Of a stretch of 64,000 nt of DNA, positions 27,211-30,364 are shown in pieces. This stretch comes from Candidatus Bipolaricaulota bacterium (GTDB taxonomy: Bacteria; Bipolaricaulota; Bipolaricaulia; RBG-16-55-9; DRXL01). Under the pieces are notes generated by a model, which saw nothing but the letters and a program-made list of their open reading frames with translations, ran no database searches and was not told where the DNA came from. How positions within the stretch are numbered: the stretch's first letter is position 1; every line of letters begins with the position of its first letter. The stretch covers positions 94,844 to 158,843 of the forward strand of contig CALLJK010000009.1 in NCBI GenBank assembly GCA_938091745.1, written 5' to 3'. Both the position numbers and the translations under genes were made by a program.

Positions 27211-28155
27211 ATGAATACGACCAAGACGGTTGTTATCGCGTTAGGCGGAAATGCGCTGCTCGATCCAAAGACCAACGGGTCTATCGCTGAACAGATCCGT
27301 ACTATTGAACGAAGCTGTCAGAAGATCGCCCAGATTATTGCTCAGGGGTATCGTGTTGTGCTCACGCACGGCAACGGCCCGCAGGTTGGGAATCTCTTGA
27401 TTCAACAAGAGGAAGCCAAAGAGCTTGTCCCACCATTGCCGTTAGACATCTGCGGGGCAATGACCCAAGGGCAGTTGGGCTATTTAATTCAGCAGAAGCT
27501 CCGTGAAGCCCTAGGGCCGTTGGGCATAGCAAAGCCTGTGGTCACGGTGGTGACCCAAGTGCAAGTAGACCCAGATGATCCGGCATTTGCCGATCCGACG
27601 AAGCCCATCGGGCCGTTCTATTCAGAGCGCGAGCGCCCGATGCTCGAGCAGAAAGGGTATGTGCTCAAGAGAGTTGGGAAGGGGGCCAAGCCGTGGCGCC
27701 GTGTTGTTGCCTCCCCAGAGCCGAAAGATATCGTTGAGATTGAGAGCATTAAAGAGCTCATTGCTGCAGGCTCGATCGTGATCGCCTGCGGTGGGGGCGG
27801 GGTTCCAGTAGTGCGTGAGCATGGGAGGTGGCGTGGGGTCGAAGCTGTGATCGACAAAGACCTCGCTTCGGCGCTGCTGGCTGAAGAACTTGGGGCTGAG
27901 ATTCTGCTGATTCTGACCAATGTTGAGCGTGTCGCGTTGTACTTTGGCACGCCACAGCAAGTCTTTTTAGATCGCATGTCAGTGCGTGAAGCGAGAAGAT
28001 ATCTCCTCGAAGGGCATTTCCCGGCGGGGAGCATGGGCCCCAAAGTTGAGGCCGCGATTCGCTTTGTGGAGGGCGGGGGCGAGCGTGCGTACATTACGTC
28101 GTTAGAGAAGGCTCTCGAAGCGCTCGAAGGGCGTGCAGGGACGGGAGTTTATTAA
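27211..28155 (+). CDS. arcC: carbamate kinase
   Basis: VVIALGGNALL..THGNGPQVGNLL.. and a C-terminal amino-acid-kinase fold. Confidence 0.9.
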   Translation: MNTTKTVVIALGGNALLDPKTNGSIAEQIRTIERSCQKIAQIIAQGYRVVLTHGNGPQVGNLLIQQEEAKELVPPLPLDICGAMTQGQLGYLIQQKLREALGPLGIAKPVVTVVTQVQVDPDDPAFADPTKPIGPFYSERERPMLEQKGYVLKRVGKGAKPWRRVVASPEPKDIVEIESIKELIAAGSIVIACGGGGVPVVREHGRWRGVEAVIDKDLASALLAEELGAEILLILTNVERVALYFGTPQQVFLDRMSVREARRYLLEGHFPAGSMGPKVEAAIRFVEGGGERAYITSLEKALEALEGRAGTGVY

Positions 28156-28184
28156 AATCTCGCTCGCACCAAATCCACGATACC

Positions 28185-28697
28185 CAGCCAACTTAGCGGT
28201 AATGCAGTTTGATGGGGAAAAATTTGTGATTAAGGCAGTCAATCCTTATACCAAGCAGGAAGAAGAAGTAATTGGTGGAGAATTTGGGAGAATTTTAAGG
28301 CACGAAATCCTCGGGATTAATCCTAAAAGAGAAAGACTTGGAGTAGACCACATTGAATTCGTCCAGACCCCTGGCCTTACTCCCAAATTTGATGAGGATA
28401 AGTTTAAGTTAGATATCAATGGAAGGGAGATTGATTTAATCTTAGTGAGGGATTTTGGCAGGCCAGATAAAGGTTTTCCCGAGTGGGGGGGTGAGAGGTT
28501 TAGTTTTGACTATGTATGTGCCGAATAGCGGTAATCCGCCGAAAACGGAAGTGCGAGATTTATCTATTGACCCAGAAGCGACCTACTACACTATTACCAT
28601 CCTTGCCCCCGATGGCAAGCTCTTAGAATGGAAAAAGTGGAAATTTGTTCCTGGTAATCCTAATCCCGTAGACTACTGGGAAGGAAAGGGCCCCTAA
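28185..28697 (+). pseudogene. 5'-truncated, frameshifted paralog of the secreted protein gene at 29664..30364
   Basis: Homology to copy 2 starts at ANLAVMQFD, so it lacks the signal-peptide region. A +1 frameshift in the poly-G run gagtgggggggtgag (7 G versus 6 G in copy 2) splits it into ORFs 28133..28528 and 28455..28697. Confidence 0.55.
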
Positions 28698-28783
28698 GAC
28701 TACCTGAGGTTGCCCTCCCTCCAATATCCCCTTGACCTGAGCTCTGGTATAGCGGCGCTCTTTCTGGGTACAATCGGAAGATC

Positions 28784-29296
28784 ATGGCCATTAAGCCCGT
28801 CGTCGCCGATGCCTCGAGCCTCATCCTCCTCGCCAAGAGCAAGCTGCTGGAACCTGTGAGCAAGAGGCTCACGGTGATTGTCCCCTCCCTGGTCTATGAG
28901 GAAGCTGTGGTGCGTGGGAAGGCGAAGGGACACGCCGATGCCCTCGCTCTAGAGGTCTTTTTCCAAACTCACAGGCTTCAGGTCAGAGAGCCTCAGCGCA
29001 CTAGCCAACAGATGGTTGAGCAGCTCTTCGGCCTGCGCGCGGGGGAACGGGACGCGCTCGCCCTGGCCTATGAGCTTGGCATACCAGACGTGCTGATAGA
29101 CGACAAGAAGGGGATCAACGCTTGCAAGGCGCTAGGGCTGCGGCCCATCACAGTGTTGGCCCTGTTGGTCATCTTGCGCAAACAAGGTATAATCAGCAGG
29201 GCTAAGGGGTTGAGAGCCATCGATCTCCTTGAGCGCTACGGATGGTACAGCCAAGATGTGATAAAGCAAGCAAGAGGTGATCTCGATGCACGTTGA
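28784..29296 (+). CDS. PIN-like (DUF3368-type) toxin candidate
   Basis: 170 aa. VADASSLILLAK..IVPSLVYEE pattern, paralogous to 56067..56519. Overlaps the downstream UPF0175 gene by 20 nt. Confidence 0.6.
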   Translation: MAIKPVVADASSLILLAKSKLLEPVSKRLTVIVPSLVYEEAVVRGKAKGHADALALEVFFQTHRLQVREPQRTSQQMVEQLFGLRAGERDALALAYELGIPDVLIDDKKGINACKALGLRPITVLALLVILRKQGIISRAKGLRAIDLLERYGWYSQDVIKQARGDLDAR

Positions 29297-29585
29297 AGTC
29301 CCGCGCGAGCTGACAGAATTTCTTGCCAGTTTGAGCCAATACGAGCCGGTGGAGGAGGAGTTCCTGGTGCGACAAGTCTTCCGCTACGGGCTGGCGGACT
29401 TGCGCCGGGAGTACGCGGTGAAGCTCTTTGCGGAGGGGCGGGTCTCTCTCGGTGAGGGGGCGCAGCTGGCGGGGCTCTCCGTAGGGGAGTATATGGATCT
29501 TTTGGCCAGTCGGGGTCTCAAATCCAAGGTCACTTTAGAGGACTACCGACAAGGGCTCCGGGCTACGAAGGCCCTCCTGAAGTGA
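29277..29585 (+). CDS. UPF0175-family antitoxin candidate
   Basis: 102 aa. KLFAEGRVSLGEGAQLAGLSVGEYMDLLASRG is the helix-turn-helix-like core shared with 55852..56070. Confidence 0.6.
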   Translation: MISMHVEVPRELTEFLASLSQYEPVEEEFLVRQVFRYGLADLRREYAVKLFAEGRVSLGEGAQLAGLSVGEYMDLLASRGLKSKVTLEDYRQGLRATKALLK

Positions 29586-29663
29586 CGCCTGCGTCTAGCA
29601 TGTGCTCTCTTGACTCGCTCCGGCTTGATTTCTATACTCTCTATGGCAAGGGAAGGAGGGACG

Positions 29664-30364
29664 ATGAAGCAGCTGTTCATAGGGGTTTTTGGTCTTGTTC
29701 TGGGGCTGTTGCCTAGTTCGGTGTTCTCCCAGCAGACCCAACCACCTTTGGATATAAGTGGGATTGATATAATTCGGGCACTGCCTATTGGGGCACTGGA
29801 AGTTTACGATAAAGAAAATTCCATAAAAATCCTTAACAGCATTGCCAACTTAGCGGTAATGCAATTTGATGTGGAGAAATTTGTGATTAAAGCAGTTAAT
29901 CCCTATACAAAACAGGAAGAGGAGGTTATTGGCGGAGAGTTTGGGAGAATTTTAAGGCATGAAATCTTGGGATTAATCCGAGGAGGGAAAGACTTGGTGT
30001 CAAGCACATCGAACTTGTCCAGACCCCAGGCCTTACCCCCAAATTTGATGAGGATAAGTTTAAGTTGGATATCAATGGAAGGGAGATTGATTTAAAGTTG
30101 CGCCGCGACCTGGGCTGGCCAGAAAAAGGGTTTCCCGAGTGGGGGGTACTTGGATTGAAACTTATACGGTACGTTCCCAATAGTGGAAATCCTCCTCAAA
30201 CTGAGGAGTTAGATCTTGGTTTAGATGTTCTCAAAGGGGAAGGTACGGCTTTCTTCTCAAAGCGCCTTTATGCTCCGAATGGAACACTCATCAAATGGGA
30301 GACTTGGGAATTTAAAGCAGGTAATCCCAATCCTGTGGCCTACCGGGAAGGAAAAGGCCCCTAA
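29664..30364 (+). pseudogene. secreted protein gene with an internal -1 frameshift (full-length paralog of 28185..28697)
   Basis: Signal peptide MKQLFIGVFGLVLGLLPSSVFS. A 1-nt deletion near 29957 (atcttgggattaatcc versus atcctcgggattaatcc in copy 1) splits it into ORFs 29610..30095 and 30065..30364. Confidence 0.55.

Follow-up and report, generated by a model that had tools for sequence, protein, structure and literature searches.

The interval between the carbamate kinase gene arcC and the succinate--CoA ligase gene sucD of a Candidatus Bipolaricaulota bacterium holds two related, differently broken copies of a secreted-protein gene on either side of a predicted toxin-antitoxin (TA) pair. 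The locus was analysed within a 64,000-nucleotide (nt) stretch of contig CALLJK010000009.1 (positions 94,844 to 158,843 of the forward strand), which is referred to here as the window and to whose first letter all positions refer. We consider that the arrangement probably reflects birth-and-death turnover of an accessory, recombining family of secreted-protein genes carried in TA-rich islets, with both copies inactivated recently and with a G run serving as a mutational hot spot. The features of the islet are given below; contigs and proteins used for comparison are designated by L and P numbers, respectively.

27211-28155, plus strand: arcC (carbamate kinase), left edge of the islet (TIGR00746, 412 bits, cut-off 358).
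28156-28186, plus strand: 31-nt junction from the arcC stop codon to the start of copy 1 homology, without family homology in the alignments.
28187-28697, plus strand: copy 1, a 5′-truncated and frameshifted pseudogene, positional ortholog of the intact P0001 gene of L011 (alignment, synteny).
28485-28491, plus strand: G7 tract of copy 1, GAG TGG GGG G(G)T, motif GFPEWGV, one G above the in-frame G6.
28784-29296, plus strand: predicted PIN-like toxin of the COG2405/DUF3368 type (precomputed PF11848; PADLOC PDC-S70).
29286-29585, plus strand: predicted UPF0175 antitoxin (PF03683; PADLOC PDC-S70), start taken from the L009 gene call.
29610-29659, plus strand: putative expression signals of copy 2 read from the sequence, TTGACT-17-TATACT at 29610-29638 and GGAGG at 29655-29659.
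29664-30364, plus strand: copy 2, a full-length paralog with signal peptide and a 1-nt deletion, present as an insertion relative to L011 (alignment, synteny).
29969-29971, plus strand: lesion of copy 2, a G3 run that is G4 in the intact L011 homolog (CTTGGGGATT), by comparison.
30141-30146, plus strand: G6 tract at the GFPEWGV motif of copy 2, in frame, read from the sequence.
30370-31254, minus strand: sucD (succinate--CoA ligase alpha subunit), right edge of the islet (NF004230, 458 bits).

An earlier note on this DNA had taken the two genes for paralogs, and nucleotide alignment confirmed this: positions 28187-28702 match 29844-30369 with 88% identity over the first 256 nt and ~74% thereafter. 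Homology of copy 1 begins abruptly at 28187, 31 nt past the arcC stop codon (28155). Copy 1 has no counterpart to 180 nt of copy 2 (~60 N-terminal codons) from which the signal peptide and the QQTQPPLDISGI block are translated, and neither a promoter-like site, a Shine-Dalgarno (SD) sequence nor a signal peptide was detected for copy 1. An AGTTTA match in the alignment, suggestive of microhomology where arcC adjoins copy 1, was considered and set aside, the intervening 31 nt being unrelated at the protein level. Copy 2 starts with a typical Sec signal peptide (MKQ / LFIGVFGLVLGLL / PSSVFS) followed by the conserved QQTQPPLDISGI block, and it keeps a promoter-like TTGACT-17-TATACT as well as a GGAGG SD sequence 4 nt before its ATG.

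Each copy is put out of frame by one base, as the same note had proposed. Removal of one G from the G7 run of copy 1 restores a continuous open reading frame (ORF) ending with NPNPVDYWEGKGP, and the in-frame homologs have G6 or TGGGGA at this position, so that both the absent signal-peptide region and the +1 shift in G7 described earlier for copy 1 hold. For copy 2, insertion of one base anywhere within 29960-29971 gives an ORF of 233 amino acids (aa) from the ATG at 29664, ending with NPNPVAYREGKGP; the similar C-terminal ends noted before are those of the frame-corrected copies. Comparison with the intact L011 gene revealed the lesion of copy 2 as a contraction of a G run from G4 to G3, which changes CTTGGGGATT to CTTGGGATT at 29969-29971. 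The 1-nt deletion that had been placed near 29957 is thus real, and its position lies ~12 nt further on. In the databases the N-terminal part of copy 1 is called as P0027, and the N- and C-terminal parts of copy 2 as P0011 and P0062, respectively. Since intact homologs of 228-277 aa exist, as a search for them showed (e.g., P0001), the ancestral gene was a single ORF, relative to which both copies are broken.

Both lesions were reproduced in Logan contig L009 (run ERR9287632, 15.6 kb), which is 100% identical to the window over 9,287 bp (20784-30070), including the G7 and G3 runs; a second run (ERR9287617, contig L010) contained the TA cassette only. The remaining genes of the window, up to 1,239 aa in length, are long and uninterrupted ORFs, so errors do not pervade the assembly, and a shared-read artefact behind both lesions is unlikely. 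In protein databases this genome is represented only by the broken P0027, P0011, P0062 and P0013, and no intact version of copy 1 or copy 2 was found in the databases searched. The decay suggested in the earlier note is therefore supported by disruption of both ORFs relative to intact homologs and by recovery of the same lesions in L009.

Frame-corrected copy 1 was compared with copy 2 by the Nei-Gojobori method; as a pairwise measure, the resulting omega cannot resolve the terminal branch. Omega was 0.011 before the copy 2 lesion, 0.13 from this lesion to the G tract, and 0.11 past the tract, at a synonymous divergence (dS) between the copies of at least 0.68. Relaxed selection (omega near 1) was not observed downstream of the lesions, where omega stayed at 0.11-0.13. 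Inactivation is therefore recent relative to the divergence of the copies: the parts downstream of the lesions were coding sequence through almost the whole of that divergence, and the lesions are young. As they stand, both copies are presumably non-functional.

Comparison with related loci bears on the order in which the islet was built. The closest genome in GTDB by arcC (81% identity), the Ca. Bipolaricaulota metagenome-assembled genome (MAG) SKYB132 (L012), has the sdh-pyk-arcC order in common with the window. Downstream of arcC (L012 8048-8775) it carries a low-GC minus-strand gene of 161 aa and a tRNA-like sequence, and no family gene or TA islet. Because L012 holds other genes there, the site after arcC is variable, in agreement with the accessory islet proposed in the earlier note. 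The syntenic contig L011 (Logan DRR101366) holds the intact P0001 gene, a PIN_3/PhD pair, what is left of the DUF3368 toxin gene together with the UPF0175 gene (84% nt identity to that of the window), and the 3′ end of sucD (83% nt identity). P0001 is 88.7% identical to copy 1 at the amino acid and 81.6% at the nucleotide level. At the place of the 784-bp copy 2 of the window, L011 has only ~20-37 nt. The C-terminal blocks of copies 1 and 2 are unrelated (61% nt identity). The synteny with L011, the dS of at least 0.68 and the unrelated C-terminal blocks show that copy 1 and the TA region are the resident part of the islet and that copy 2 was added as a diverged paralog and did not arise by recent duplication in situ. 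The same observations speak against the duplication with insertion that had been suggested earlier.

In L011 (959-2316) the intact family gene is separated from the UPF0175 gene by an extra PIN_3/PhdYeFM TA pair, and no more than a remnant is left of the DUF3368 toxin gene; the TA content of the islet therefore also turns over.

Breakage recurs across the family. A third paralog of this genome, P0013, is located on the same contig outside the window and shows TGG to TGA at the Trp codon of the GF(P)EWGV motif, its DNA having been read in the near-identical relative P0020 of L006 (ENA ERZ6863514, same species). Three near-full-length copies can be linked to this genome (two in the window and P0013), none of them intact, and the four family products called from the 282,956-bp contig (P0011, P0062, P0027 and P0013) are all fragments. 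In another lineage, sampled in three metagenomes, L001, L004 and L005 have G5 in common at the tract. Decay continues in this G5 lineage, since L005 has acquired an 8-nt deletion and a T3 to T2 contraction relative to its 99.4%-identical sister L004. Further disruptions are a +A insertion in L007 relative to the intact L093 from the same sample (JGI 3300059600), at least three frameshifts in L095, and an in-frame TGA within the motif in L096 (NCBI GCA_038830925.1, a different MAG). At L096 1560-1600 the motif reads GGA TGA AAT GGG GGA TTA, with the stop and about five substitutions in 24 nt, and the flanking codons are conserved.

A second locus of similar arrangement was seen at L006 4213-6720. 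A heavily degraded copy with a frameshift, an in-frame stop and internal deletions (4213-4740) and a decayed C-terminal half (4783-5100) come first; next is a minus-strand PIN/antitoxin pair (5131-5853), after which stands the near-intact third paralog (6001-6720), whose Trp codon has become TGA. As L006 repeats the arrangement of the window with a different PIN TA pair, the layout of decayed copies, TA genes and a further copy is a recurrent one. TA genes adjoin the family gene also in L011.

At the codons of the motif the tract is G5 in L001, L004 and L005, G6 in copy 2, L003, L008, L093 and L011, and G7 in copy 1. Four independent disruptions (+G in copy 1, -G in the L001 lineage, TGA in L006 and TGA in L096) fall within one motif of ~18 nt, a clustering subject to ascertainment bias, as an ORF ending at the motif was the reason for retrieving several of the loci. 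Most copies have no G/C homopolymer of 6 or more other than the G6 run, which explains the two indels. The tract is encoded by GGG in seven of nine copies, as against 22% of Gly codons elsewhere. Selection for keeping the tract, which a naive binomial test would suggest (p = 0.0007), is not supported, because control Gly columns are equally dominated by one codon (7/8, 7/9 and 7/9), and relatedness explains the pattern. Synonymous conservation rises around TPGLTPKFDEDKF (0.7-0.76 vs. ~0.5), too mildly to claim an element acting at the nucleotide level.

Besides breakage, the family is recombinogenic and its alleles are mosaic. L008 and L093 carry intact alleles in the same NurA-gene-SurA context and come from the same sample; between L008 6153-6379 and L093 2574-2814 a central stretch of ~230 nt is only ~65-75% identical, with flanks at 98-100%. 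The PHI permutation test on the codon alignment gave p ~0.0005. Copies 1 and 2 of the window are mutual nearest relatives upstream of the tract (84-86%) and not downstream. Single contigs may be chimeras of metagenomic strains, but P0021, of the L093 type, was recovered in three samples. The frameshifted L007 carries an L093-like allele with a small L008-like patch.

Searches with frame-corrected copy 2 returned 19 proteins among 5.8 billion, and a profile search gave 45 hits among 1.84 billion cluster representatives; in most homologs a single ORF runs without interruption. The family had no match in Pfam, NCBIfam, PADLOC or PHROG, a scan of GTDB genomes with copy 2 gave no relatives, and no description of it was found in the literature. 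A viral origin was rejected, as IMG/VR viral contigs contained no relatives. The family is thus unannotated, extremely rare and lineage-restricted. Its genes have a GC content of 40-45% at every locus (the window copies, L001, L002, L006, L008, L011 and L093) in hosts of 54-58%, and the TA genes adjoining them have host-like GC. In the window the copies are at 43-45%, the stretch as a whole at ~55% and the TA cassette between the copies at 59%. By GC and by the variable site after arcC, the family genes are foreign or accessory in character.

Judging from the signal peptide, the family protein is predicted to be exported by the Sec route. AlphaFold2 (16-sequence alignment) returned a confident model (mean pLDDT 84; residues 43-246 above 90) in which the first 42 residues are disordered. 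According to the model, the mature part of ~190 aa would consist of an alpha/beta N-terminal region, in which two helices pack against short strands, and of an antiparallel beta-sheet of eight strands after it; no convincing structural match to this fold was found. Distant members end with GNPNP(V/I)xYRP(L/M)GPP, and in one subgroup of them the conserved C-terminus reads GNP(N/D)x(I/V)xYRP(L/M)GPP. The distant proteins (P0035, P0037, P0048, P0054 and P0056; P0044, P0046, P0047 and P0050) include tandem two-domain fusions of 365-638 aa.

The two genes between the copies form the TA pair suggested in the earlier note, predicted to be of type II. For the toxin, an identical protein carries a precomputed Pfam assignment to PF11848 (DUF3368), and the PADLOC candidate defence system PDC-S70 matches both the toxin (E 6e-17, residues 6-163) and the antitoxin (E 1.7e-5). 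Our own hmmscan of the toxin against a local Pfam-A was empty at E ≤ 1, as was the NCBIfam scan, and no sequence match was found in PDB. The antitoxin matches PF03683 (E 9e-12, 45 bits, cut-off 27.9). Both genes are on the same strand and overlap by 11 nt (20 nt with the GTG start at 29277), encoding products of 170 and about 99 aa, and the toxin gene has a host-like GC content of 59%. A COG2405 (DUF3368) toxin with a UPF0175 antitoxin is a predicted type II TA system (Matelska et al. 2017, PMC5499597). The window pair agrees with it in both domains, in the overlapping same-strand genes and in the typical sizes; it is unremarkable as such, and what stands out is only that copies of the family flank it.

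From these observations the following course of events can be proposed. A deletion beside arcC would have removed the promoter, the signal peptide and the first ~60 codons of copy 1, and the G6 run at the conserved GFPEWGV codons of this copy would also have grown by one G. Insertion between the antitoxin gene and sucD would have brought in copy 2, a diverged paralog that came with a promoter and an SD sequence; shrinkage of its G4 run to G3 would later have knocked it out. In the family at large, AT-rich copies may be newly acquired or recombined in, often beside TA cassettes; alleles would swap segments, copies would often be lost, and the G run of GFPEWGV would be the main mutational hot spot. 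Breakage appears to be mutational and not regulated, and no new mechanism is required by the data.

Several points weigh against this turnover model. Slippage explains only two of the four disruptions of the motif, both of them indels, so that the clustering could have a more specific cause. The coding sequence past both lesions shows no decay and copy 2 has apparently good expression signals, which would also be compatible with reversible OFF states. Finally, some of the metagenome contigs, L007 especially, could be chimeras of strains.

The second of these points leads to phase variation, in which slipped-strand mispairing at G6 (GFPEWGV) and at G4 (EILGI) would toggle the copies and the assemblies would have caught them OFF. 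The earlier note had raised a phase-variable G tract for copy 1, and the part concerning length stands: G5, G6 and G7 occur at identical codons in different copies, and both window lesions are changes in the length of a G run. The persisting signature of purifying selection, the intact promoter and SD sequence of copy 2, and the presence of intact (L093) and frameshifted (L007) versions of one locus in one metagenome point the same way, and a secreted protein with mosaic alleles is typical of contingency loci. Phase-variable tracts of the classical kind are usually 8 or more nt long, however, and those seen here have 4-7 nt. The OFF state was the same in all observations: both assemblies of the strain are OFF and the databases hold no ON version, which amounts to 2-4 contigs. 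In addition, G5 is fixed in three metagenomes and has been joined by further lesions in L005, nonsense codons, which slippage does not reverse, have inactivated other copies, and GGG at the tract is no better conserved than other Gly columns. Restoring the frame could not rescue copy 1, because its 5′ end is missing. On balance we regard phase variation as unlikely.

A broader proposal would be that these non-pathogenic Bipolaricaulota possess an unrecognised variation system, in which expression of a secreted or surface protein would be toggled at the conserved G run of the GFPEWGV codons and its sequence varied by conversion of segments from archived partial copies, kept beside TA cassettes that would stabilise the islets; we think this quite unlikely. 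Within the same proposal, the cluster of four disruptions at the boundary between conserved and variable blocks would mark a site-specific process, either switching or a recombination junction, and this too seems a rather slim prospect. It is also improbable that the broken copies form a silent archive that donates segments by gene conversion to an expressed copy elsewhere and so varies a surface or secreted protein, in the manner of pilE/pilS or vlsE. Promoterless 5′-truncated copies do exist (copy 1; L006 4783-5100), L006 has a tandem array of partial copies, and the segmental replacement between L008 and L093, the PHI result and the affinity of copies 1 and 2 upstream of the tract would all fit such an archive. 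No intact expression copy was found on the 282,956-bp contig, however, where the four products are fragments, and there are just 2-3 cassettes per locus. The L006 copies, with their many stops and deletions, resemble plain decay, and the mosaicism could stem from ordinary homologous recombination between strains.

If both frameshifts were errors of sequencing or assembly, the islet would hold two intact paralogs, of which copy 1 is just shorter at its N-terminus. The lesions do lie in G homopolymers, a typical error context of some platforms, and the frames downstream of them look fully functional. Against this, the independent Logan assembly agrees at both sites, though possibly from the same or related reads; no further broken genes are evident in the 64 kb, a comparable lesion is inherited in another lineage in three metagenomes, sister copies carry nonsense lesions, and the 5′ end of copy 1 is missing regardless. 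We therefore hold this explanation to be very unlikely. Programmed recoding, by which frameshifting, transcriptional slippage or stop read-through would give a full-length protein, is suggested by interruptions recurring at one conserved motif in several copies with downstream coding potential kept, but is extremely improbable, as most homologs are uninterrupted, inspection found no slippery heptamer or stimulatory stop/SD context, Rfam was empty, TGA is an ordinary stop in this genome (e.g., the end of pyk at 27184-27186), and no single mechanism fits corrections that are opposite (+1, -1) or require read-through at the same site; programmed frameshifting in particular was rejected, the lesions differing in sign and type.

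The edges of the islet were identified with equivalog-level NCBIfam models, and the assignments of arcC and sucD made in the earlier note agree with them. Copy 2 and sucD are convergent, with 5 nt between their stop codons. The description of sucD as an orphan fits as well: sucC is not adjacent, and tblastn gave no match to it in the 64-kb window with an approximate E. coli SucC query. Upstream of sucD are a DUF501 gene (31335-31889, plus strand) and a minus-strand ORF of 353 aa (31860-32921). Rfam and tRNA searches of 28-30.4 kb gave nothing, and RNA elements and tRNA-targeted integration at the islet were rejected on this ground.

Other regions of the window with atypical composition were also observed. 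A 1,238-aa ORF at 10694-14410 (plus strand), with a GC content at third codon positions (GC3) of 0.45 and N6_Mtase, Eco57I and MmeI_Mtase domains, is probably a type IIG/IIL restriction-modification enzyme and as such another accessory gene. At 48695-55209 (plus strand) there are low-GC3 type I CRISPR-Cas genes, with a weak Cas_CXXC_CXXC match, Cas7 (DevR/Csa2, E 7e-48) and Cas3 (HD and helicase); Tandem Repeats Finder detected no CRISPR array in the window. Two neighbouring low-GC3 ORFs at 40654-41597 (minus strand), one with a weak match to PBECR2 (Barnase/EndoU/RelE-like nuclease; E 3.6e-4, below the gathering score), may represent a toxin-like accessory module or a split gene.

The family turns over rapidly in Candidatus Bipolaricaulota and related uncultured organisms, whose envelope and secreted proteins are hardly known. 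Strong fluctuating selection on this protein, for example by phages or predators, is suggested by the recurrent breakage at one G-rich motif, by mosaicism of the alleles and by the repeated copy/TA/copy layout. If the copies were to switch or to serve as cassettes, contingency-locus biology, known so far mainly from host-associated pathogens, would reach a free-living, deep-branching lineage. If ordinary turnover is at work, the value lies in annotation, as the ORF fragments merit merging and flagging as pseudogenes.

Homopolymer contingency genes, such as the poly-G genes of Campylobacter jejuni and the surface-protein genes of Neisseria and Haemophilus, belong to host-associated bacteria. 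The family resembles them in having a G run within the ORF that shifts the frame, in G5, G6 or G7 depending on copy or lineage, and in being multi-copy and recombining. It differs in its tracts of 4-7 nt, in the lack of length heterogeneity within the strain among the few contigs seen, in lesions that are fixed and followed by further decay, in nonsense codons and deletions, and in the presumably free-living, uncultured host. Silent-cassette gene conversion operates at Neisseria pilE/pilS and at Borrelia vlsE with its vls cassettes. Truncated, promoterless copies near full-length ones, mosaic alleles, and conserved blocks flanking variable ones are features in common with these systems, whereas no expression locus was found intact in this genome, no recombination-initiating element was identified, the cassettes are few, and stops and frameshifts accrue in them. 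From ordinary pseudogene turnover the family departs in the high broken fraction among the members examined and in the concentration of lesions in a motif of ~18 nt. It agrees with such turnover in its disrupted ORFs, in a truncated resident copy beside a newer paralog, in atypical GC, in variable neighbourhoods, and in progressive lesions (L005, L095 and L006).

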